A DNA stretch of 37,371 nucleotides from a virus (Duplodnaviria; Heunggongvirae; Uroviricota; Caudoviricetes): the IMG/VR virus record IMGVR_UViG_2579779116_000018, positions 1 through 37,371 of that record. One strand, given 5' to 3'. The notes beneath the pieces were generated by a model. That model ran no database searches. It saw only the letters and a list, made by a program, of their open reading frames with translations, and had not been told where the DNA came from. Positions 3,405 through 37,371 of the stretch are shown piece by piece. How positions within the stretch are numbered: position 1 is the stretch's first letter; every line of letters starts with the position of its first letter. The position numbers and the translations under genes were made by a program.

Positions 3405-4580
3405 TTAGAGAGCGTTTAAGAGAGTATTAAAGTATTCATCCATTAAATCAGGATTGTTGTCATCAATACAGAAAAATTCCGGTTTATTGATGCCGTAGAA
3501 GTGAGTATGTAGCTTGAATGTATCGTCATCAAATACATCTTTCGGAGATACCCACATATTAGCCTCGTCCGGTTGATTGGTTAGGTAGTCATAAACCAGT
3601 TGCTGTAAGTGCGGCAACTCATCAATAGTCAGAGTTTCCGACCATCCATCCTTGAAATCTTTGTAGGGTGCTGCATGAGTCTTGAAGCGTTGTTTTACTT
3701 CATGCTCTAAATCGGCAGCTTTCCAACCATCCTCAAACTCATGAGTAAAGATTAAGCGGTGAGTGAAGTTGCTCTTTCTGGTTTGTTCTCTCATTCGTTC
3801 TTCTGGTTTTCGGGTAGTGATTCCAAATTTAATAAATTTGTCATCTAATAATTGAATGTAGAAACTAGCCTTACCCTGATAAGTCCGGTTAGACAGTTGC
3901 ACCAGTTGGTCTTTAATGCAAAGCGGACAAGTGAAAGAATCAGCACATCTTAAATGAGATTCCCATTCGTGGTTATGTGACTTGCAATAGGTTTTAAATT
4001 TAACATCCTTTAGGTGTGGGGTGTTTATGGTAAATCCTTTGAAGATGTAAGGTGTAGTCTCGCAACGTGCATTGATGATTGTCTCTTTGTCCTTAATAAC
4101 TTCATCAAAAGTCTTGCCACTTCTTACCCGTTGGGATTTTTCAGCCATACAGATTTTACAATCAAAATCAAAATCATCCTTGAGAGCATGTAATAGAGAT
4201 GGCGTCATGATTTGATTGTGTATAGGACACAAAACACGGGCTTTTGTCTTGTTGCGCCCTTTCCATTCTCCTTGCCATCCTAGAAACTTCTTTCCCTTCT
4301 CATTACAACGAGATTCCATTTTCAACCATACAGCCTTTTCAGTCTGGAATAACTCACCCCCGTTAGTATCTTCCAGTTTGCGTAATTTGTAGTCCTTATA
4401 TTCTTGTGTATCTAAATTGTAGATTCGAAAGTAAGTGTGATTACCCTTCCACGGTAGGATAAATCCACCAAATACGAAAGCAGGTTCCAGTTTAGCGATG
4501 ATTCGTTGTTGGTACTCTTCCGGCGATAAACCGCGAGTTTTCTTAACAAAAGGAATTTCGGCAGCGTAAGCAAGTTTCAT
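3405..4580 (-). CDS. Zn-ribbon-repeat / T5orf172 domain protein, paralog B (391 aa)
   Basis: Start moved from ORF-track 4691 to the internal ATG at 4578-4580, which has RBS AGAGGAAACTACT upstream and gives an N-terminus (MKLAYAAEIPFVKKTRGLSPEEY) matching the paralogs. WKG/C...CP.C repeats and C-terminal FYIQL...KFGITTRKPEERMREQ. Confidence 0.75.
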   Translation of the reverse strand: MKLAYAAEIPFVKKTRGLSPEEYQQRIIAKLEPAFVFGGFILPWKGNHTYFRIYNLDTQEYKDYKLRKLEDTNGGELFQTEKAVWLKMESRCNEKGKKFLGWQGEWKGRNKTKARVLCPIHNQIMTPSLLHALKDDFDFDCKICMAEKSQRVRSGKTFDEVIKDKETIINARCETTPYIFKGFTINTPHLKDVKFKTYCKSHNHEWESHLRCADSFTCPLCIKDQLVQLSNRTYQGKASFYIQLLDDKFIKFGITTRKPEERMREQTRKSNFTHRLIFTHEFEDGWKAADLEHEVKQRFKTHAAPYKDFKDGWSETLTIDELPHLQQLVYDYLTNQPDEANMWVSPKDVFDDDTFKLHTHFYGINKPEFFCIDDNNPDLMDEYFNTLLNAL

Positions 4581-4639
4581 AGTAGTTTCCTCTAAAATAA
4601 TAAGTTCACTACTATTTATTAGAGAAAATTGTCTTACTA

Positions 4640-4667
4640 TTGCATTCTCTATCTGAATGTGTATAAT
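4640..4667 (+). promoter_or_regulatory. putative sigma70 promoter for the 4735 gene
   Basis: TTGCAT (4640-4645), 16 bp spacer, TATAAT (4662-4667), in the divergent intergenic region 4581-4734. Confidence 0.4.
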
Positions 4668-4734
4668 ACGCGACCCTAAATCCCAAACCAACCATATTGA
4701 GGTTATGCCTATAAGTTAAAAAAGTGAGGTCTAT

Positions 4735-5304
4735 ATGATTCCAGTAATGGCTAAAGATATTGTTTTTACTCCTAAATCCTCCCGTGCTGTAACTCCATCG
4801 GCATTAGAACAACGCATTCTGACTCACATCAAAGATAAGGACTTACCATTAGTCTTTCATGGCTTTCTGGGTGAGTTTAAAGGGCTTCATTCAAGAATTG
4901 CTCTAACATGTACCCGATGCGGTAATAGAGCCGACAAATCAGCTACTAACCTGCTTAATGAAGGTAAACGATGTGTTTGCTTCAATAGTGACTACTTTCA
5001 ATATAAAGCGGGTGTGCCTTATCTCTATGTAATGAAGTCTGGGGATATTGGTAAATTTGGTGTTACAAAGTCAATCATCAAGCGACGTGTTAATCTGGGT
5101 GTACGCAATCCCGGTCATAACTTTGATATTGTCTTTGCTGGTGAAATGCCATCAATGAAACATGCTTTAGCCACTGAAAGAGCAATAAAGAGATTACTGG
5201 ATGTGGGTATAGGCGGGATTGAATACGGCAAAACTGAAACATTCCACTACTGCAATAAATCACTAAACAATATAAAGAATATTGCAAGTGTGGAGTGGAA
5301 CTAA
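4735..5304 (+). CDS. Zn-ribbon / T5orf172 domain protein, paralog C (189 aa)
   Basis: RBS GTGAGGT before ATG; one GEFKG...C..C...RCVC repeat and C-terminal PYLYV...GKFGVTKSIIKRR T5orf172-like segment. Confidence 0.75.
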   Translation: MIPVMAKDIVFTPKSSRAVTPSALEQRILTHIKDKDLPLVFHGFLGEFKGLHSRIALTCTRCGNRADKSATNLLNEGKRCVCFNSDYFQYKAGVPYLYVMKSGDIGKFGVTKSIIKRRVNLGVRNPGHNFDIVFAGEMPSMKHALATERAIKRLLDVGIGGIEYGKTETFHYCNKSLNNIKNIASVEWN

Positions 5305-6794
5305 TGCAAGATATTAAAATTCATTTTCAAGATTACAGTTTCGTTAAGGTTGATTGCTCTCCTTCTATCGGAATGGAATTAAGAGATTATTTCTCTTTTG
5401 AGGTTGAAGGGGCTAGGTTTAGCCCCCGATACAAGTATTCAGGCTGGGATGGACGAATAAGACTGTTTACGCATGAGAATACCCTACCAATTGGACTATT
5501 AAAAACGTTGGGTGTCTTTGTTAAAAATATGGGGTATTCAGTCTGGATTGACCCGCGATTGCTTGAGAAGGAAGATGTAACCAAAGAACAGATTGATTCA
5601 TGGATTGATTCTTTAGAAGTGTATTCCGGTAGCAATAAAATCAATCCTTACTGGTATCAGCGTGAAGCAGTCTTTCAGGGTATTCATAATCGCCGTAGAA
5701 TGCTGGTTCTTCCTACCAGTGCGGGTAAGTCATTGATTGCTTGTATGCTGTCTCGTTGGTACTTAGAGCATTACACCGGAAAGGTGTTAATCATTGTCCC
5801 GACTACATCGCTAGTGGTTCAAATGAGGGATGATTTCATCGATTATCGGTTATTCCCTTATGAAGCAATCCATACAATGATGAGTGGTAGCGGGAAACAT
5901 CCGGGAGACAGGTTAATCACGGTTAGTACCTGGCAATCAGCTTGCAAGATGCCTCCTGAATGGTTCAAACAATATGGAATGTTGATAGTTGATGAATCGC
6001 ATAAGGCTAGTGCCAAAAATATTACCAATATCATTAACGGAATGAATCATTGCCAATTTAAGATCGGCATGACTGGTTCCCCGAAAGAATCAAAGTGCCA
6101 TTTAATGCAGTATGTCGGGCTTTTCGGTGATATTTCCAAGATCGTGAGTATTGACCGCCTGATGGAAGAAGGGCAGGTGACAAAACTGAAAATTAACTGT
6201 CTTTTCCTTCGTTATACCGATGAGGAATGTAGCGCGGTTAAGGGGAGAGAATATGCGGAAGAGATCAAGTATATTACATCTAACCCACGACGTAATAAGT
6301 TTGCTTGCAATTTGGCGCTAAAACTCGCTAAGAAGGGCGAAAACGTATTCCTGATGTTCCGCAATACTAAGCACGGAAAACTTATGTATGACGCGTTACA
6401 GAAGGTACACGACAAGGTTTATTATATTGACGGTGGAGTTAAGACAGAAGAACGTGATGAATTTAAGAAAATGGCGGAGGGTGACACCGGGATCATTTGT
6501 GTTGCGTCTTATGGTGTGTTCTCTACTGGTGTTTCAATTAAGAATTTGCACCATGTTATTTTCGGTCATCCAGTGAAGGAATCAACTATCGTTCGTCAGA
6601 GTATCGGTCGTGCATTGCGTAAACATGGTTCTAAGGATATTGCAACGGTCTGGGATCTTATAGATCATCTGTGTATATTCGGTCGTAACGGAAAAATCAA
6701 GCATAAAAATTATGCGGTAAAACATGCACTTGAGAGAATCCGCTATTATCTAACCGACAAGTTCAGATATGCAACTAAAACAATTGCTATATAA
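5304..6794 (+). CDS. SF2 DEAD/DEAH-box DNA helicase (about 496 aa)
   Basis: Walker A LPTSAGKS, DESH box (LIVDESHKAS), motif III MTGSPK, motif VI VRQSIGRALR. Start taken as ATG 5304 (RBS GGAGTGG) rather than the ORF-track GTG at 5295. Confidence 0.85.
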   Translation: MQDIKIHFQDYSFVKVDCSPSIGMELRDYFSFEVEGARFSPRYKYSGWDGRIRLFTHENTLPIGLLKTLGVFVKNMGYSVWIDPRLLEKEDVTKEQIDSWIDSLEVYSGSNKINPYWYQREAVFQGIHNRRRMLVLPTSAGKSLIACMLSRWYLEHYTGKVLIIVPTTSLVVQMRDDFIDYRLFPYEAIHTMMSGSGKHPGDRLITVSTWQSACKMPPEWFKQYGMLIVDESHKASAKNITNIINGMNHCQFKIGMTGSPKESKCHLMQYVGLFGDISKIVSIDRLMEEGQVTKLKINCLFLRYTDEECSAVKGREYAEEIKYITSNPRRNKFACNLALKLAKKGENVFLMFRNTKHGKLMYDALQKVHDKVYYIDGGVKTEERDEFKKMAEGDTGIICVASYGVFSTGVSIKNLHHVIFGHPVKESTIVRQSIGRALRKHGSKDIATVWDLIDHLCIFGRNGKIKHKNYAVKHALERIRYYLTDKFRYATKTIAI

Positions 6795-6827: not shown

Positions 6828-7179
6828 ATCCATTCCATCGTGATTTTTTCGATCTGGAATCGATATGCGTAAAGGTTTTATATTTGCCTAAGCCGTATTG
6901 AGTAGGATATTTCCCATCAAGATAAGCATGGACAATATCAGGGGAGACACCCTTGATCACAATGTCAGCCGCACGGCCTCGAACGTGATAGCTGTTGGTT
7001 GCACCGCCTACATTCTTGTTATGAGTTGGGCAACGGTTCCCACTGTTAATAATTACTGGTTTCCCGAAGTGTTCGCGTACATCCTCAAGAATTACCAGTA
7101 ATTCAGCGTCGATTGTATCATAATCACATTTTCCACATTTACATTTAAATTCCTTGCGAGAAAAATGTTTGCTTAACAT
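6826..7179 (-). CDS. peptidase M15-family zinc peptidase, candidate endolysin (117 aa)
   Basis: N-terminal LSKHFSRKEF and SGNRCPTHNKNVGGATNSYHVRGRAADI ... THID match the M15 (VanY / L-Ala-D-Glu peptidase-like) metal-binding signature; strong RBS TAAGGGGGT; last gene of the late operon. Confidence 0.7.
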   Translation of the reverse strand: MLSKHFSRKEFKCKCGKCDYDTIDAELLVILEDVREHFGKPVIINSGNRCPTHNKNVGGATNSYHVRGRAADIVIKGVSPDIVHAYLDGKYPTQYGLGKYKTFTHIDSRSKKSRWNG

Positions 7180-7188
7180 ATTACCCCC

Positions 7189-12610: not shown

Positions 12611-13029
12611 TATTCACCCCCGAATCTATAAACTTGTTCATAGTCAATGTCTGAAACAGGAATGGTCATCCAGATACCATCTTCTTCAACGAGGCCATAA
12701 CCGGAATAATGAGGAACTACGGAATAATAATTACGGTTTCCTAATTTGTGGGCTGTGACCAGTAAGTCGCCGTCCTGTAAATCATCAGTGACTAATTTGA
12801 AATGTTTCTTAATTGGTTGAAGGATATTTGAATACCCGCTTAATTCTTTGCAGATTTTCAAGCCTTCTTCTTTAGTTGAATATTTTTTATAAAGAGAATT
12901 ATATAGGTCAGTACCAGCGAGAATATCGATGATCTTACATGCAATTAGATTGCAATCATTCTCACCCTGAACGAACTCCTGACCTATTAAAGAATTGATG
13001 TAATCGGTGATAAGCCTAGTTTTTAGCAT
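12610..13029 (-). CDS. putative tail tip assembly protein with NlpC/P60-like Cys/His motif (gpK-like), about 139 aa
   Basis: Position between minor tail genes and the J-like gene; ENDCNLIACKI Cys motif and downstream His residues; start placed at internal ATG 13027-13029 with RBS GGAGGT. Family call is tentative. Confidence 0.5.
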   Translation of the reverse strand: MLKTRLITDYINSLIGQEFVQGENDCNLIACKIIDILAGTDLYNSLYKKYSTKEEGLKICKELSGYSNILQPIKKHFKLVTDDLQDGDLLVTAHKLGNRNYYSVVPHYSGYGLVEEDGIWMTIPVSDIDYEQVYRFGGE

Positions 13030-13075
13030 GTTGAATACCTCCATGCTGTTATTTACTAGGCTTAGGGAGAAGGGA

Positions 13076-13846
13076 TTATTTCTTGAAGTCTTCGTACATT
13101 CTACGAAGGTTGTATTTTGGATGGCCTAAGCTAACCATGATTTGACTCAATTTAACCGCGCCGGGTTTACCGTTTTCAATCCACACGCGCCGGATTTCAT
13201 CGTAATGCTGCCAACAGCCTTGACCTTTAGCAATACGTATAGAATGTGTATATTTCTTGGTAGAGCTTTCTGGTCGCTTGCGCCCTAGATGTGCTTTTCT
13301 AATCTTTTCGCGTGTTTCTTCTGATACAGGTTTACCATAACGGGGGTTATTCTCTCCACGAGTAGCAGCCGATAATTTAGCTAATATTTCTGGGTTTGTT
13401 ACTTTTTTGCCTCTCATTGCACTAGGTTTACCATAGCGATGGTTCTTTTCACCCATTCGAGATGCCGACATTTTAGCTCTAGATTCCGGTGTATGTTTTC
13501 TTCCGTAAAAAGGATGATTTTCACCACCATCAAAACCACCGACACCACCAGGAGCTATATTAAGACATACACCACGCCCCCATTTTTCGCGTGCTGCCTC
13601 CACTAACAGGATTTCACATTCAAACGCTTCCTCGGCAGTATCAAACAATTTTGAACGAACAACTTCAAATTCATATATCGGGGTTTCTGATTCTTTATTT
13701 TTACGCTTCATCATTTTAATAACTTTACCCGATCCCACATATCCATCGTCTAGATTTGTGGTTGTTCTTTTTCCGACGTAATGATAGATTTTACCAGAGC
13801 GATTAGATTTAATAGTGGTGTGATAAACGTAATGGAATTTTTGCAT
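13076..13846 (-). CDS. GIY-YIG homing endonuclease with NUMOD3-type repeats (256 aa)
   Basis: N-terminal HYVYHTT...SGKIYHYVGK...GYVGSG (GIY-YIG module) and three copies of N-x-P-x-Y-G-K/R-x-x-S/T-x-E-T/S-R-x-K-I/M (NUMOD3-like DNA-binding repeats); own RBS; inserted between minor tail genes. Confidence 0.85.
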   Translation of the reverse strand: MQKFHYVYHTTIKSNRSGKIYHYVGKRTTTNLDDGYVGSGKVIKMMKRKNKESETPIYEFEVVRSKLFDTAEEAFECEILLVEAAREKWGRGVCLNIAPGGVGGFDGGENHPFYGRKHTPESRAKMSASRMGEKNHRYGKPSAMRGKKVTNPEILAKLSAATRGENNPRYGKPVSEETREKIRKAHLGRKRPESSTKKYTHSIRIAKGQGCWQHYDEIRRVWIENGKPGAVKLSQIMVSLGHPKYNLRRMYEDFKK

Positions 13847-28838: not shown

Positions 28839-30743
28839 TTAGAACGATGTTACCCAGCTACGGCCTCTATTTGGGCGTCTGGCGATGTTTTGACGTTGTG
28901 GTCGTGTGATTGGCTTAGTTTCTTCGATTTGCTCGTCAGATTGCGATTTAGGAGCTTCTACAGGTTCTTCTGGTTCACGGTTCAAACTATCTTTGATGGC
29001 TTCGAGTTTTTCCCATGACATTTTATTGAGTACATGACGAGAAGCAGCATAGGAATAAGCCAGGCAGTCGAGAGCCTCGTTTCGTTGCTGACCAACTTTT
29101 ACCCAACGTGTGGTATTACCCTGCCGTTTCAACTGTTCAGATAACAATTGCTCGCAATAGTCATCAGGAACGTCACCAATCTGGAAGACCGTATGAGGAT
29201 CGCTGTCTCTCAAGTTCCGGTTAATCATTTCACGGATCATCGTCTTAAGGTTGTTTACGCCCAGAATTTTGAGAGTAAAACCGCCCGTTCTTGTGTCCTT
29301 AGCCGGAAGGATTGGAGCATCAGCATTACTTGCGCCTTTAATGGCGCATAGGTTTTGCCACCTAGTGCAAAAACGGTAGATCACGTTTGTAGCTCGTCCG
29401 TTCGATGAGTCCACGAAAGCAGATAACATCGGGATTCGTTCACCGGATCGGGTATAGAATTTCGCTTTCAGGAAGTTATAAAGCTGGTCATATGCTGGCG
29501 ATTCGTGGCGTTCGCAGTTCACATCATAGAATGATCGGTGATCAACTACGCATATCCCCTTACGAGAGATACCCAGCAAGGTAGATTCCAGACGGTCTTT
29601 TTGCTGGTCAACTCCACCTACCAGAGCCAGTACATCATCAGGAATATTGTCTAGGCTAATATCAGTTTTCAGCGTTTCCAGTTCGTCGGCTGTGCGGTCT
29701 TCGTTAAGATCATCGAAGGTTTCGCCTAAGACAGTGTTATAGAACGTTGCCAGGGACATATTCGCGTAGCTATCAGCAAAGTCCACCACACACGCACGGA
29801 TAGAACTAAACGGAGACATAAGGCGGTTAGCATGAAAACCGATTACTTCCGCATTTGGTTCGGTGGCGACCCATTCTCCCTGAGCAACAGCACGGAGGCG
29901 ATCCCCTTCGGTCCAATCGGTTTCACATTCAGGGCAACGGTAAACGGCTGTATCTGGGTTGGGTAATGATTTACCGTTAATCGTATGCCAATCGAAATGT
30001 ACGTTACTCCATTCCATTACGTGCTTGTGTCCGCAATGCTGGCAAACGACATGATATTTTCTCTTATCCGAGAGTTCCCATTGTTGGTTAATCGCCCCAT
30101 CACGAGCGGTTGGAGTGGAAGCAATTACGATCCTTGCATCTTCCCCGAAAGTGGTTGCGCGTTGTTCCGCTAGCTGGATCGGGTTCCCTTCGTCTGACTC
30201 ATCAGCCGCATCAACTTCATCAAGAATAATCAAAGGGAGTGTTTTACCGCGAAGATGTGACGGACTATTCAACGACATGAAATACATAAACGATCCGTTA
30301 CGAAGCTGAATAATCGATGAGTTGTTAACGGCATTGCGATCTGATTTGTCGGTGATCATCGCTTTTAATTCTGGCGTTGCCTCTAATACTGGCTTCACCT
30401 TACCAGCGATCCAAGAATTTAGTTCCCTAACGTTACTTTGCAAGACCCCAATATTAGTAGGGTTACTCGCGATCCGATGGAAGATAATTCCGTTAAGAAT
30501 CATGGTCTTACCCAACTGCGCCGAACATTTAAACACAATTTTTCTACGGTCTTCGGTGATCGCGTCCATCATTCCACGTTGGAAGGGATGCAATTTAATT
30601 AGCGATCCGGCTTTAACACCATCGGTTGCAACTACATTAGCCTCTACCCATTCGCTAGGTTTCATGGCTTTAGGTGGGCGAATTGCAGCAGAGATATTTC
30701 TGAGAATCTTTTTTAATTTTGCCTTATTAGAAATCAGTTTCAT
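28839..30743 (-). CDS. terminase large subunit, lambda gpA-like (634 aa)
   Basis: HPFQRGMMDAI, Walker A-like KCSAQLGKTM, Asp-rich LIILDEVDAADE, Cys cluster CQHCGH...CPEC; first gene of the minus-strand late operon. Confidence 0.9.
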   Translation of the reverse strand: MKLISNKAKLKKILRNISAAIRPPKAMKPSEWVEANVVATDGVKAGSLIKLHPFQRGMMDAITEDRRKIVFKCSAQLGKTMILNGIIFHRIASNPTNIGVLQSNVRELNSWIAGKVKPVLEATPELKAMITDKSDRNAVNNSSIIQLRNGSFMYFMSLNSPSHLRGKTLPLIILDEVDAADESDEGNPIQLAEQRATTFGEDARIVIASTPTARDGAINQQWELSDKRKYHVVCQHCGHKHVMEWSNVHFDWHTINGKSLPNPDTAVYRCPECETDWTEGDRLRAVAQGEWVATEPNAEVIGFHANRLMSPFSSIRACVVDFADSYANMSLATFYNTVLGETFDDLNEDRTADELETLKTDISLDNIPDDVLALVGGVDQQKDRLESTLLGISRKGICVVDHRSFYDVNCERHESPAYDQLYNFLKAKFYTRSGERIPMLSAFVDSSNGRATNVIYRFCTRWQNLCAIKGASNADAPILPAKDTRTGGFTLKILGVNNLKTMIREMINRNLRDSDPHTVFQIGDVPDDYCEQLLSEQLKRQGNTTRWVKVGQQRNEALDCLAYSYAASRHVLNKMSWEKLEAIKDSLNREPEEPVEAPKSQSDEQIEETKPITRPQRQNIARRPNRGRSWVTSF

Positions 30744-32950: not shown

Positions 32951-33008
32951 AATTAACATCCCCTTTACAAATCTAGGTCAAATAGGTTCAAAGTTGTCAA
33001 GTGCGATA

Positions 33009-33037
33009 ATCATAAAAAAGTCAGAAATTTTTGTCAA
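33009..33037 (-). promoter_or_regulatory. sigma70-type promoter (minus strand)
   Basis: On the minus strand TTGACA (33032-33037), 17 bp spacer, TATGAT (33009-33014); drives the small ORF and Rha gene. Confidence 0.5.
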
Positions 33038-33072
33038 TACCCCTTGACAAGACGCCAAAGGGTTGACCTAAC

Positions 33073-33525
33073 TTACAGCATATCTAAGCCTTCATCGTAA
33101 CCGTAGAAGCCACCGTGAGAAGAAAAACAGATTGGAGCGTAGTCTTCGTCTTCCTCATCTTCTTCATCTTGTTCTGGGGCTTCCTGAGCGGGTTGTTTAC
33201 CATAATCAGCCATAATCTGGTCAAGATCGGCGATCCCATAGTAAGAGCCTAAATCAACGTCATATTCACGAACATCAAACGGCAGGTCATCACGAACAAT
33301 AATTGCCGGAATGTTGTTGTATTGTTCACGACCTTCATCAGTAAAGCAGTCTACGATCACCGTAGGGCGACCATTACGTTTAAAAGCATAGAAAGCAGTT
33401 GAGAAATTGGAGTCTTCGGAATGACGAATGATGTTATAACCACGATTAGCGAAAACATGCATCATAGCCAGATTATCATCATGGTTCAGACCCAGAAGTA
33501 CGAAAGGAGTTTTAGTATTGATCAT
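33073..33525 (-). CDS. acidic hypothetical protein (about 150 aa)
   Basis: Start placed at ATG 33523-33525 with RBS AGAGGATACCACT; C-terminal acidic run EEDEEDED; first leftward gene leaving the control region. Confidence 0.6.
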   Translation of the reverse strand: MINTKTPFVLLGLNHDDNLAMMHVFANRGYNIIRHSEDSNFSTAFYAFKRNGRPTVIVDCFTDEGREQYNNIPAIIVRDDLPFDVREYDVDLGSYYGIADLDQIMADYGKQPAQEAPEQDEEDEEDEDYAPICFSSHGGFYGYDEGLDML

Positions 33526-33725
33526 AGTGGTATCCTCTAAAAGAAAGTGAATCAAACAAAGTACACTAGTATTTATAACGAGAATTTTTTATCTATTTGG
33601 AAGTGATTAGATTCAGTCGGCTTCGCCTCCTTCATAGATTTTGATTAAATCATCATCAAAACGAAGAAGTATCTTTAGAATATAAGAATCTTTCTTTTGG
33701 AGAAATTATAATCAGGAAGCAATTT

Positions 33726-34057
33726 AGCAACCGAAGGTTGCAATCCCGAAGGGATACCAATACCTTTCATGATCATTAAAGTGATCTAGAATCATCTAGT
33801 AACCAGTTAACTACTATTATCTTCAAAGTGATTATTACTATCTTTCTAGAATCAGTTAGTAACTAGTTTAAAATCCCTTTCAAGAAAATCCTTTCAGAAG
33901 TGATTCTCGATGCCACGCAGTGGCGTCGCAGACGTTTGAGAGTGAGCGAAGCGAGCGAGCAAACTAGTTAATTCCTTCTAAGACCATCTAGTATCATCTA
34001 GTTTAAATTAGTGTTACTAGAAGTAATTGGTTAGCGCTTCGCGCAGTCGGGCTACGC
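33726..34057. repeat. three pairs of short tandem hairpins interleaved with CTAG-rich AT-rich repeats
   Basis: Pairs at 33726-33753 (GCAACCgaaGGTTGC + ATCCCgaaGGGAT), 33911-33934 (GCCACgcaGTGGC + CGTCgcaGACG), 34032-34057 (GCGCttcGCGC + GGGCtacGCCC), separated by repeats such as TCTAGAATCATCTAGTAACCAGTT. Confidence 0.4.
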
Positions 34058-34203
34058 CCTCCTAATATCTTTTTGGTTATTTGTTGTTTTTGGTTTTACA
34101 CATGAGCGTAGCGAATGTGTTATATAATATCTATGCACGCCCGATCCCCGCTTTTGCCCCTCACTAAGTTAATGTTTTATAAAGAGTTTTTCTTACCAAT
34201 CCT

Positions 34204-34393
34204 TTTCGGGGGCAAATTTCAGGGGCAAAAATTAGATTTTCAGGGGCAATTATTGGCATTTCAGGGGCAAAAATGAGGGGCAAAATCACCGTTTCCCAGA
34301 ATTTCAGGGGCAAAAATAGTAGGTTTCAGGGGCAAAAATGGGATAGTGAAATCTAGGGGGATTTTGGTTCAGGGGCAAAATTCAGGGGCAATT
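34204..34393. repeat. iteron-like direct repeats, consensus TTCAGGGGCAAAA (about 10 copies)
   Basis: Copies at approx 34204, 34218, 34238, 34260, 34274, 34304, 34324, 34352 (degenerate), 34369, 34381, irregularly spaced; all same orientation; immediately upstream of the promoter at 34461. Confidence 0.7.
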
Positions 34394-34460
34394 TTCATAG
34401 TGTAGGGCTAGTGTAGGTTTGAAAGTCCTTTCTTGACACTATGTAGGTTTGGTGCTATAC

Positions 34461-34490
34461 TTGACAATTCGAGAAAAAATGTGGTATAAT
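34461..34490 (+). promoter_or_regulatory. strong sigma70 promoter with extended -10
   Basis: TTGACA (34461-34466), 18 bp spacer, TGGTATAAT (34482-34490). Confidence 0.6.
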
Positions 34491-34727
34491 ATTTGTATTG
34501 AAAGTGAAAATTTACCGATTTTCCTTCCTATTGTTATCACCGTGTTAAATTGTTATATGTTTGTGAAGATTTGGATCTGAGAGAAAATCTTGTAACAAAT
34601 CTTTACAATTCATAGCTCAATTAATGCTCACCGCTTTAGCAAAAAGTGCTATGCAATTTTCTAAATTGATTGAATAAACATCAATTTGGTTAATTCGTGT
34701 TCTTCTCTTTAGCAATTCGTGCTGCGG

Positions 34728-34780
34728 TTTAACACATTTAACACGTCTGATAACATCTGAATAACATTTTAACATATCTC
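34728..34780 (+). repeat. five phased TAACA repeats at about 10-11 bp spacing
   Basis: TTAACACA, TTAACACG, GATAACATC, AATAACATT, TTTAACATA in the same orientation, one per helical turn. Confidence 0.4.
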
Positions 34781-34817
34781 TGTTATAAATACATATATAA
34801 GAGATAAATGTGAGGGG

Positions 34818-34847
34818 TTGAAAAATAAAATACAATCCCCATATAAA
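34818..34847 (+). promoter_or_regulatory. possible second promoter
   Basis: TTGAAA (34818-34823), 18 bp spacer, TATAAA (34842-34847); weaker match. Confidence 0.3.
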
Positions 34848-34854
34848 TAATAGT

Positions 34855-34875
34855 GAGCGGTTAACGCTCTTTTTT
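34855..34875 (+). terminator. intrinsic terminator / attenuator within the leader
   Basis: GAGCG-gttaa-CGCTC hairpin followed by TTTTTT, 35 nt upstream of ATG 34911. Confidence 0.5.
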
Positions 34876-34910
34876 AAGAAATCATTAATCCAGATTTAGG
34901 AGGATTTAAG

Positions 34911-35093
34911 ATGGCACGACCTGTTAAGTTCACTCGTGAAATCGTTTTAGAAATGGCAAAGCGTTATTTTGAACTGACACCTGATGTAGTGATGGGTGAA
35001 TGGTTTAAAGGTGAAGGTATTGATCAATCAACCTTCCACAAACTCTTAAAGAAGTATGACATTAAAGTAAAGATTACCGCAGAGGTGTGGTAA
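34911..35093 (+). CDS. small putative DNA-binding protein (60 aa)
   Basis: Strong RBS AGGAGGA; MARPVKF N-terminus and STFHKLLKKYDIKVKI C-terminal motif, paralogous to 31467-31694. Confidence 0.6.
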   Translation: MARPVKFTREIVLEMAKRYFELTPDVVMGEWFKGEGIDQSTFHKLLKKYDIKVKITAEVW

Positions 35094-35206
35094 TAACCTT
35101 TCACTGAGAATTATATGATGGCTTTAAAAAAGAAAAAGCCTCCCTTGTTGCAGCAAAGGAGGCTTGAAATGAACAATTAAAACTAACTTTCCACGGAGTA
35201 TTTATA

Positions 35207-36148
35207 ATGTTATTTTCCGCTAACTTTTTCACTAACGAAGTAACCAACGCTAAAGCAGTTATCAAATTTGGCACCGAAGCAAACAAGAAGATTCAGCCGA
35301 AAGTTGTTGCTCATGTTTCCTTTGCACAGCAGAAATCCGCTTTCGCTGGCTTTAAAGCACATCGTGAAGCACTGATCGCGGCTGGCTTTGGTGTTGACGG
35401 TAAACTGCCTAACGGCATTCGTAAAGCAATCGACCGCGTTAAACCTGCTAAAGACGTTGCAGTAGACCACATCGTTACTTTTACCGTTAAGAACTCTTCT
35501 GAACTGTTCCACCTGGTTATTGCTGGTGATACTGCTATCGTTTCCGCTCCTAACATGGATTTTCAGGATACCGCTGATTGCCAGATCACCTTCGGTCGTC
35601 GTAAAGAAGTTACCGGAAAAGCTAAACTGAACTTCACTAAATCCGGCAATCCTTACTTTGCTGTTTTCTTTAACAGCCACGCTACCGAAAAAGAAGTTGT
35701 AGAACTGGTTGCTTATGAAGGTGAAGAGAAAGAACGTATTGAATCTTGCGAAGCATTTCTGGAACTGGAAGCACAGGTGAATGCTGTTTCTCCGGTTGTT
35801 GAAGATCGCTTTGCTGCACTGGAAGCACAGATCGCAGAACTGAAAGCTGCACTGGAAGAAAAAGACCAGATTATCGAAGCACAGAAAGCTGAGATTGAAG
35901 AACTGAAAGCTAAAGAAGTTGCTCCGGTGGCAGTAGTTGAAAACGCGGCTGATGAGGCCGCAAATGATGAAGTAGAAGTGAAAATCGATGTGATGCGTGA
36001 TCCGATGGCTGCACTGCAATTACTTCGTTCTTTTAAGGGCAAATCTCATTTTTCTAGTGATGTAGAAGATGAGGAAGAAGAACAGAAACGCAATGCTGCA
36101 ATGCTTCATGATGAAATGTACGGTACTAACTTTTCTTACTGCCAATAA
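35207..36148 (+). CDS. abundant hypothetical protein with coiled coil and acidic C-terminus (313 aa)
   Basis: RBS GGAG; codon usage visibly different from the rest of the window (CTG, GAA, AAA, GCT, CGT-rich, as in highly expressed E. coli genes); heptad-like EAQIAELKAALEEKDQIIEAQKAEIEELKAKE; followed by terminator. Confidence 0.75.
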   Translation: MLFSANFFTNEVTNAKAVIKFGTEANKKIQPKVVAHVSFAQQKSAFAGFKAHREALIAAGFGVDGKLPNGIRKAIDRVKPAKDVAVDHIVTFTVKNSSELFHLVIAGDTAIVSAPNMDFQDTADCQITFGRRKEVTGKAKLNFTKSGNPYFAVFFNSHATEKEVVELVAYEGEEKERIESCEAFLELEAQVNAVSPVVEDRFAALEAQIAELKAALEEKDQIIEAQKAEIEELKAKEVAPVAVVENAADEAANDEVEVKIDVMRDPMAALQLLRSFKGKSHFSSDVEDEEEEQKRNAAMLHDEMYGTNFSYCQ

Positions 36149-36810: not shown

Positions 36811-37371
36811 TTAAGACACATCAAATTCATCGTCTTCTTCTGGTTCTTGTTCTTGTTCTTCCGGTTCATCCATTAATGGTAATTCTTCTTCCTCGTCTTC
36901 TCCCAAATCTGCATTTTCGAACAAGTCCCCTACTTCATTTAAACGACGCTCGATAATCTCCCTTAGCTTATTCTTTAATGTTTTCTGGTCAGTGGCAGAT
37001 TCGAGAATTTCTAAAGCGTCGATTGTGGCGATCTGCAAAATAGTCTGCTTCACTTTCCCGCAGTATTCCGCTAGTTCCTGTTCTACATACCCGACCGGAA
37101 TCAGGAGATTCATAGCTTCCTGGTTCTCTCGTTCGGCTGCATCCGCTAATGCTCTTTCCCGGCGCAACTTCTCAACATCTATTTGTTCTTTTATAGAAGT
37201 TTCTTTGAGCGGATTAATGATGTTCTTCAAGACCCATTCTGTCCCTTCTTTGGCTGGTACGCGTCGTGTATTGGTATTAAATGGCATTCCTCGTTCTTGC
37301 CATTTCTTAGCGGCGTTAATTGTATAGCCGTATAAGCGGGAAATTTCTGTAAGGGTTAATTCTTCTTTCAT
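36811..37371 (-). CDS. Nu1-like DNA-binding protein, candidate terminase small subunit (at least 186 aa)
   Basis: N-terminal LTLTEISRLYGYTINAAKKWQERGMPF resembles the lambda Nu1 winged-helix segment (IRTIQNWQEQGMPV); acidic C-terminus. The ATG coincides with the last 3 nt of the window, so the true 5' end is not verifiable. Confidence 0.6.
   Translation of the reverse strand: MKEELTLTEISRLYGYTINAAKKWQERGMPFNTNTRRVPAKEGTEWVLKNIINPLKETSIKEQIDVEKLRRERALADAAERENQEAMNLLIPVGYVEQELAEYCGKVKQTILQIATIDALEILESATDQKTLKNKLREIIERRLNEVGDLFENADLGEDEEEELPLMDEPEEQEQEPEEDDEFDVS

Follow-up and report, generated by a model that had tools for sequence, protein, structure and literature searches.

A cluster of short, conserved hairpins occupies the control region of an Escherichia coli prophage, and the evidence strongly supports the view that this array is real, non-random and evolutionarily maintained. 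The stretch analysed (IMG/VR record IMGVR_UViG_2579779116_000018, positions 1 to 37,371; Caudoviricetes; 37,371 nt, hereafter the window) is nearly the whole of a chromosomal prophage inside ycdX, an uncharacterised tailed-phage genome. The hairpins lie in a 1.4-kb gap without annotated gene, between the start of a minus-strand gene at 33525 and a 60-codon plus-strand gene at 34911. They can be assigned to the d(C-GNA-G) class, in which a short G+C stem with a closing C-G pair would carry a G-N-A triloop with a sheared G-A pair. Our favoured reading, to which we give a probability of roughly 0.35, is that they are strand-specific DNA mini-hairpins that would extrude within an origin or control region and act there as initiation signals.

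The first-pass annotation of this DNA had reported three tandem hairpin pairs in GC-rich islands. All were found where it had placed them, with spacings of 185 and 122 nt (positions 2, 3 and 4 in Table 1). Three weaker hairpins of the same class (33619, 33946 and 34106) had been overlooked, and the cluster extends to ~33600-34130. The G+C content was 64% in the islands, 26% in the surrounding DNA and 41.6% in the whole window. Triloop hairpins with a stem of at least 4 bp and at least three G-C pairs occurred 16 times in the window, 6 of them at 33727-34059. C-G-closed hairpins of that strength with a GNA or TNC loop (TNC is GNA on the other strand) numbered 6 in the window, all within 333 nt (33727-34059). 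In 300 dinucleotide shuffles, the mean number of such hairpins per window was 1.1 (maximum 5), and there were never more than two within 350 nt. A small open reading frame (ORF) passing through the 33619 hairpin was considered and excluded; lengths there differ among relatives (9, 11 and 12 nt).

Related regions were collected from divergent E. coli prophages and IMG/VR contigs; relatives in Salmonella, further E. coli and Edwardsiella were found via the conserved 60-aa protein. A protein-based scan of species-representative genomes gave no find. All relatives had the same layout: a minus-strand gene of ~150 codons, 1.2-1.6 kb of gene-free DNA, the 60-codon gene, and a gene for a protein of 313-394 aa. 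Hairpins stood at the same positions with different sequences. The first hairpin of pair 1 (position 2) occurred in the versions GCAACC, TGCAGC, GGACAC, GGATGC, GCCCC, GACGCTC and ATGTTGC. Its second hairpin occurred as ATCCC, TATCCC, TCCAC and TCCGC, as TGC-GAA-GCA in relative L050 (GCGAAGC) and as TGTGC-GTA-GCACA in Edwardsiella (GCGTAGC). Covariation was counted over nine distinct versions of pair 1, with five base pairs per stem after trimming. The proportion of paired cells was 98.9%, and double changes were present in 8 of the 10 pairs. The covariation score was 0.96, compared with 0.22 for shuffled versions and at most 0.16 when partners were slid. Both loop-closing C-G pairs were invariant. 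Double changes accounted for 31 cells, and single-sided (G-U type) changes for none of the 90, a count for which detection demanded perfect Watson-Crick stems, so that wobble pairs at outer positions could be hidden.

Variation at the other positions was of a similar kind. Position 1 was GGGC-AAA/ATA/TAAA/TAAC-GCCC or GTGC-GATT-GCAC; position 3 was ACGCC-GTA-GGCGT, GCGCC-GTA-GGCGC or GTCC-GAA-GGAC, and GTGA-GCGAAGC-G was retained in most relatives; position 4 was ACGGC-TAC-GCCGT, AGGGC-TGC-GCCCT or a tetraloop TAAA version. At position 5, Salmonella relative L071 had GGAATA-GA-GCGAAGC-GA-TATTCC, in which the outer stem is compensated. At least 20 related intergenic regions contained 41 distinct triloop hairpins, 25 of which were C-G-closed with a GNA or TNC loop (~3% expected). 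The loops of these 25 were GAA (6), GTA (6), TAC (5), GCA (4), TTC (3) and TGC (1), with no GGA. The strand that carries GNA was mostly fixed by position: plus for the first pair, the middle island and 34106, and minus for the last pair. One exception was a Salmonella lineage in which the first hairpin is flipped. Across 68 distinct instances of flank plus core, 41 were on the plus and 27 on the minus strand. The clustering beyond shuffles and the conserved, compensated stems strongly support the annotation's view that these elements are structured and non-random. It had also held that hairpin pairs lacking conservation in related genomes would speak against them; the pairs keep their positions, with compensatory stem changes, among prophages of E. 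coli, Salmonella and Edwardsiella and among RB49-like phages.

The RB49-like phages were identified by a sensitive DNA search of deposited phages, which matched solely Krischvirus, a T4-type genus (59 records). The match covered 33631-33715 of the window, with ~80% identity over 85 nt, and lay in unannotated intergenic DNA. The main module of RB49 occupies 400 nt without genes, upstream of a DprA-like gene, and has two copies of the AT-rich element (the A element of Table 1). One copy is followed by ACTCC-GTA-GGAGT and TCGC-GAA-GCGA, the other by TTACTAGAAGT and TCCGC-TAC-GCGGA; the order and orientation of the elements are those of the window. A second, shorter module lies upstream of gene 3; in phage JSE it adjoins an endonuclease gene, and the encoded protein has 36% identity to the window protein encoded at 578-1624. 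A census of 50 kb of RB49 showed that GNA mini-hairpins are confined to the two homologous modules and a few chance sites in genes. This near-absence elsewhere excludes a role as general punctuation in RB49. Judged from their sequences, the prophage array and the RB49-like non-coding module are of common ancestry.

The favoured DNA-level reading places the islands in AT-rich DNA that melts easily and flanks the iteron array and the operator cluster of a temperate phage. Negative supercoiling, transcription, or opening by an iteron-binding protein would be the trigger. The islands would then snap into compact hairpins on the GNA strand, i.e. on the plus strand at 33727-33952 and 34106, and on the minus strand at 33619 and 34034-34059. 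These hairpins would keep the region open and would form structured landmarks, free of SSB (the protein that binds single-stranded DNA), on defined strands; they could be start sites for the host's replication or initiation apparatus (primase or a PriA primosome, and possibly RNA polymerase). What is conserved in each element is its C-GNA-G core, and stem changes are solely from one Watson-Crick pair to another. Because GNA occurs on either strand, a property of DNA would explain the pattern without the need for transcripts from both strands. Protein scans of the prophage recognised a UvsW-type helicase and no primase, helicase loader or initiator, so the prophage would have to recruit host priming functions. 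We infer that the hairpins act as DNA rather than as RNA, that the iteron array serves as origin, and that the hairpins have a role in unwinding and priming.

The C-GNA-G motif is exceptionally stable in DNA (PMC13037366, PMC4496689), and in phage N4, stems of 5-7 bp with this motif extrude at physiological superhelicity (PMC4496689). Precedents that link mini-hairpins with initiation are the phage G4 origin, ssiA of RSF1010 and the N4 promoters (PMC13037366). The hairpins described here resemble the N4 early promoters, which are used by the virion RNA polymerase, in that the 3-nt loop has G at its 5′ and A at its 3′ side and is closed by a C-G pair, a geometry that makes the hairpin strand-asymmetric and very stable (PMC4496689, PMC13037366); stems are 5-7 bp in N4 and 4-7 bp here. 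Unlike in N4, they are arranged in tandem pairs and on both strands, their stems vary freely, and they do not share the -8G, the A-tract ruler or the +1C flank. The GGA loop, for which the N4 polymerase is reported to have high affinity (PMC13037366), was present in 0 of the 25 distinct hairpins. No T7-like or virion RNA polymerase was seen among the scanned proteins; the largest ORFs (1258 and 1149 aa) encode tail fibres. An N4-type promoter was rejected: the hairpin geometry is present, but the flank consensus and the virion polymerase are not. In an improbable extension of the DNA-level reading, extruded mini-hairpins would be single-stranded initiation sites beyond the N4 group, in a temperate siphophage family and in RB49-like phages. 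Primer or RNA synthesis would be begun there by a host enzyme (primase, RNA polymerase or the PriA primosome) or by a phage factor that is small and unrecognised. In this extension, the hairpins might also stabilise an R-loop-type origin that is later dismantled by the UvsW-like helicase.

Mini-hairpins stand at primer starts in the G4 complementary-strand origin (GCGAAAGC) and in RSF1010 ssiA (CCGAAGG), and two consecutive mini-hairpins are bound poorly by SSB (PMC13037366); by sequence, the present islands are of this class. The primase start triplet CTG is found here in GACTG, which comes after the minus-strand hairpins at 33619 and 34049; at position 1, GACTG does not vary. The ssi sites of RSF1010 lie on opposite strands beside iterons and an AT-rich segment, and the layout of the window is similar. 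Unlike RSF1010, the prophage has no RepB′-type primase gene, and no sequence similarity to G4 or RSF1010 was seen, though no test was aimed at it.

Several observations weigh against an initiation role at the DNA level. The CTG triplet is limited to positions 1 and 4 of some variants; positions 2 and 3 lack it, as does position 4 of the type B relatives. Hairpins oriented by their GNA strand share no common flank motif, and no promoter-like or priming consensus emerged. Some orthologous loops are not GNA (AAA, ATA, CCT, TAAA), and at 33619 the loop is non-GNA in many relatives. The demand for perfect stems also tempers the lack of wobble pairs. DnaA boxes are at chance level in the window, and the iteron array, instead of being an origin, could have an operator or partition function. 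The RB49-like modules lie upstream of genes and are without iterons, which fits a transcription-linked role equally well. Most relatives have a -10-like hexamer (TATAAT, AATAAT, GATAAT, TAGTAT or TATGTT) at a distance of 13-15 nt upstream of the first pair, and every variant has a T5 run after the last pair.

The last two observations are those expected if the hairpins were RNA stem-loops of short early transcripts, as in PeSL-type promoter/stem-loop cassettes; this alternative is possible though doubtful, and we place the DNA-level role slightly ahead of it. A weak promoter in the A element would give a rightward RNA with the first pair at its 5′ end and the middle island internal. The last pair and the T-run would attenuate or terminate this RNA, insulating the next promoter, and the 33619 hairpin would do likewise for the leftward mRNA. 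The hairpins would shield RNA ends and keep transcription from one promoter from running into the next where promoters stand close together. The A element contains TATAAT or TTGACA-17-AAGAAT in some relatives. In type B relatives, position 4 is ACGGC-TAC-GCCGT plus ATTCTTTTTG, and this second hairpin scores as a weak terminator. The RB49-type DNA (~80% identity over 85 nt) presents, in the sense direction, GNA, GNA, TNC, a promoter and a gene. PeSL cassettes of RB49, phi1 and other T4-like phages consist of AT-rich DNA and sigma-70-type elements with a stem-loop upstream of, within or downstream of the promoter, and are associated with modular exchange; their stem-loops are demonstrated terminators at various positions relative to promoters (PMC2839356). 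The homology of the window to RB49-group intergenic DNA with like mini-hairpin pairs, and block replacements bordered by hairpins, are in agreement with this. However, the published PeSL stem-loops are Gn-loop-Cn terminators beside near-consensus promoters, whereas those of the window are mixed-sequence stems with GNA triloops, at least 370 nt from near-consensus promoters; the surroundings of positions 2 and 5 have -10-like hexamers only. The PeSL paper (PMC2839356) does not name the RB49 sites to which the window matches.

Other observations speak against an RNA role. Stems are only 4-6 bp; the T-rich run begins at 34071, 11 nt past the last stem; and no convincing -35 element was found. A terminator scan made no call at 33600-34130, which excludes a standard intrinsic terminator in the window; the second hairpin at position 4 of type B alone qualifies. 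When 33000-35400 was compared with Rfam at a permissive threshold, the matches were no better than chance and fell far short of the gathering scores. An RNA role would explain the restriction to GNA loops or their complement, and the unvarying C-G closure, only with transcripts on both strands. There were no G-U intermediates among the 90 cells. RNA folding predicted a larger Y-shaped structure for each island, with closing stems formed by GAAGTGATT-like and AATCCTTTC-like flanks. These structures were excluded: the flank-flank duplex energy was -5.5 kcal/mol, compared with -5.1 ± 2.6 kcal/mol for shuffled controls, on either strand, and DNA folding retained the mini-hairpins alone. A long-range pairing of GCGAAGCG (33946) with CGCTTCGC (34035) was also rejected; it is present in E. 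coli types and not in Salmonella L054. The annotation had proposed origin-associated stem-loops, processing sites or small-RNA terminators, and the analysis demonstrates none of these. Indirect support was obtained for the origin proposal from the adjacent iterons with their cognate variable protein, the d(C-GNA-G) loops on both strands and the lack of wobble. The terminator proposal agrees with the third pair alone, in some relatives, and not with that pair in the window itself.

RNA hairpins could also be targets of a phage regulator that loads an antitermination factor on divergent early transcripts. In lambda boxB and HK022 put, short G+C stems that end in GNRA-like loops, or two stem-loops side by side, stand early in divergent transcripts, and the window shows a likeness to both. 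Here, 5-bp stems carry GNRA-like (GNA) loops in tandem with 0-1 nt spacing, as in put RNAs. GNA is on the sense strand of transcripts diverging from the A element (33619, minus; 33727-33755, plus), and likewise from the T-rich segment (34034-34059, minus; 34106, plus). Hairpin pairs are swapped whole between relatives, as a specificity determinant might be. We nevertheless regard a nut- or put-like function as unlikely. The loops are triloops and not pentaloops, the elements are far smaller than put RNA, and there was no boxA-like motif, no Rfam match and no arginine-rich small protein identified. Position 1 is without GNA in many relatives, and stems vary freely with no obvious co-varying protein.

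Exchange between relatives raises the further explanation that the islands and their conserved flanks are recombination landmarks, i.e. joints for module exchange between phages with little regulatory role, like the shuffling proposed for PeSL. Block replacements have their borders within ~10 nt of hairpins; L039, L049 and L050 have a different position 2 pair, and type B differs in everything from position 3 on. The module is common to an unrelated T4-type genus that also has CapR/T5orf172-like genes (36% identity; the JSE gene beside the module). Passive joints, however, would not retain perfect stems through compensatory changes, nor a loop class and a closing pair. As a sufficient explanation this one has little probability; it is compatible with the other readings.

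Each hairpin is also, as duplex DNA, a palindrome of 11-15 bp in a region rich in other repeats, and the prophage has a terminase of the GpA/Nu1 (cos) type. That the islands are duplex sites bound by dimeric proteins, or form part of a region recognised by a cos-type terminase, is nonetheless very improbable. Palindromy is conserved but half-site sequences are not, and the part that is conserved, the C-GNA-G centre, is asymmetric. Separate operator-like palindromes (with AAGTGATT half-sites, and AACTAGTT) already account for protein binding, and the gene for the small terminase lies at a distance of 2.7 kb and has an upstream gap of its own.

These palindromes belong to repeats that are interleaved with the hairpins. 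The annotation had counted four copies of one repeat, and the TCTAGAATCATCTAGTA family was confirmed at 33785, 33845, 33977 and 33987. CTAG occurs 8 times in 33786-34020 and 78 times in the whole window, a local excess of ~16-fold. The near-repeats of AAGTGATT that it had described are also real, but the range it assigned to them (33726-34057) was too narrow: exact copies are at 33601, 33826 and 33898, with no others in the window, and the first is outside that range. Copies with one mismatch are at 33779 and 34021. The inverted partner of AAGTGATT is AATCC(C)TTTC, and IMG/VR relative L017 has a perfect 22-bp palindrome, AATCACTTTCTAGAAAGTGATT, of the form AATCACTTT-CTAG-AAAGTGATT. From their form, the palindromes with AAGTGATT half-sites and AACTAGTT look like operators. 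The AACTAGTT palindromes at 33861 and 33962 show a likeness to trp-operator half-sites. The A element has a different sequence in Salmonella relatives but is still palindromic, and the direction of its promoter-like hexamer pairs, rightward or leftward, depends on the relative.

To the right of the hairpins, the iteron array (Table 1) has a repeat spacing of 13, 21, 22 or 43 nt. Other relatives have arrays of GTGTAGGTTT, CGGGGAT, GGTGGAATCCGGGGGA or CCTCCTAC in the same place. The type of repeat follows the N-terminal half (domain) of the protein of 313-394 aa that is encoded downstream. Salmonella L071 has the repeat of the window, and the two proteins are 64% identical, whereas downstream proteins beside other repeat types have only the C-terminal coiled coil and acidic tail in common. 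Because the repeat type tracks its N-terminal half, this protein is the likely binder of the repeats, and we consider it a candidate for a new, unannotated family of iteron-binding proteins (initiators or regulators). Sequence searches of Pfam, NCBIfam, PHROGs and PDB gave no match for the 313-aa protein or its 150-aa and 60-aa neighbours. The 313-aa protein had no detectable homology to known initiators, and its homologues among the best 120 matches were solely near-identical E. coli and Shigella proteins. An AT-rich flank, a direct-repeat array and an adjacent gene for a candidate cognate protein are present, an arrangement like that of iteron replicons, which consist of an AT-rich region, iterons, a promoter and an initiator gene. 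A single weak DnaA-box-like match, TTTTACACA at 34094-34102, is directly left of the composite hairpin at position 5.

A TTGACA-17-TATAAT-type promoter was found in every relative examined, at the place equivalent to the two tandem promoters of the window. These are followed by ~380 nt without ORF and a conserved terminator (34855-34869) directly before the ribosome-binding site of the 60-codon gene. The segment 34433-34875 is a candidate non-coding RNA or attenuated leader. With a minus-strand gene that starts at 33525 and plus-strand promoters and genes from 34433, the annotation's term "divergent control region" is fair. The 60-codon gene is followed by the 313-aa gene (35207-36148). Upstream of the leftward 150-codon gene, at ~33565-33580 on the minus strand, all relatives have a conserved CTCGTTATAAATA, which includes the T4 late-promoter motif TATAAATA.

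Table 1. Hairpins of the prophage control region and other features of the window.
Feature	Positions	Strand	Remarks
Position 1 hairpin, GGC-TTC-GCC	33619-33627	GNA on - (GGC-GAA-GCC)	Preceded on + by invariant CAGTC and followed by TCCTTCAT
Position 2 (pair 1), GCAACC-GAA-GGTTGC and ATCCC-GAA-GGGAT	33727-33741, 33743-33755	GNA on +	1 nt between hairpins
Position 3 island, GCCAC-GCA-GTGGC, CGTC-GCA-GACG and minimal GC-GAA-GC	33912-33924, 33924-33934, 33946-33952	GNA on +	
Position 4 pair, GCGC-TTC-GCGC and GGGC-TAC-GCCC	34034-34044, 34049-34059	GNA on -	
Position 5 composite, CACAT-GA-GCGTAGC-GA-ATGTG	34099-34119	+	Core GC-GTA-GC 34106-34112; TTTACA (34095-34100) on one side, TATAAT (34123-34128) on the other
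A element, AT-rich imperfect palindrome	33640-33715		TATAAT-like hexamers (TATAAT 33707-33712)
CTAG-rich direct repeats TCTAGAATCATCTAGTAAC and TCTAGAATCAGTTAGTAACTAG, with palindrome AACTAGTT	33785-33868	+	Blocks conserved in relatives
Operator-like imperfect palindrome AAATCCTTTC-A-GAAGTGATT	33885-33905		AAGTGATT is one half-site
Second CTAG-repeat block, TCTAAGACCATCTAGTATCATCTAGTT ... CTAGAAGTAATT	33977-34028	+	Repeat families
Iteron array, ~11 copies of TTCAGGGGCAAAA	34204-34393	+	Inverted copies 34147-34163
Two tandem near-consensus sigma-70 promoters	34433-34490	+	
GpA-type large terminase	28839-30743	-	
Nu1/DUF1441-like small terminase gene	36811-37371		
UvsW-type helicase	5295-6794		
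CapR/T5orf172 endonuclease-like genes	578-1624, 3405-4691, 4735-5304		
Homing-endonuclease gene within tail module	13076-13846		

The intergenic region was carried by 58 of 5,426 complete E. coli genomes, in every case on the chromosome. A near-identity DNA search of deposited phages and plasmids gave no match to the window, which is known solely as a chromosomal prophage. The copy in UTME-12 is inserted in ycdX and ends ~700 bp past the right end of the window. In that copy (L038), an IS1 lies between the capsid and portal genes (12802-13499), and the portal gene is 1266 nt compared with 1512 nt in the window; the UTME-12 copy is probably defective. The structural genes are on the minus strand (~6.8-30.7 kb) and encode a GpA-type large terminase, portal, capsid, tape measure and T4 gp37-like tail fibres. 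The closest relative of the large terminase has 43% identity. It is from a 141-kb record, Escherichia phage DCP80 (L001; PQ671644), filed under Straboviridae/Gaprivervirus. That filing seems at odds with a GpA-type terminase, and misassignment or a chimeric assembly is possible. The small and large terminase genes are ~6 kb apart, with the whole control region and opposite-strand genes between them, which is an unusual arrangement. In the Edwardsiella tarda relative L051, a gene for a reverse transcriptase-TIR fusion (6913-7183) adjoins the small-terminase gene and is probably defence cargo.

The left end of the window encodes a large serine recombinase, three CapR/T5orf172 endonuclease-like proteins and the UvsW-type helicase. 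The helicase, these endonuclease genes, the homing-endonuclease gene and the gp37-like fibre point to gene exchange with T4-type phages. No CI-like repressor was recognised in the prophage.

The d(C-GNA-G) hairpin was already known from its chemistry and from a few initiation sites, and promoter/stem-loop cassettes were also known. What is new is a conserved, covarying array of 8-10 mini-hairpins in the central control region of a widespread family of enterobacterial prophages. Such an arrangement, with tandem pairs on both strands and interleaved operators beside iterons that swap specificity, is not described; literature searches on ycdX prophages and on the exact strings of the hairpins and iterons gave nothing of relevance. 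Should the hairpins act as DNA, supercoil-driven extrusion would be used as a signal well beyond N4, and the prophage would offer a tractable system with a lysogen, clear-cut mutations (a flipped loop as against a swapped stem) and a candidate origin. Should they act as RNA, they would be a class of phage transcript punctuation that is both new and compact. In either case, the region points to an unannotated family of iteron-binding proteins and to a control region that is not of the CI style.

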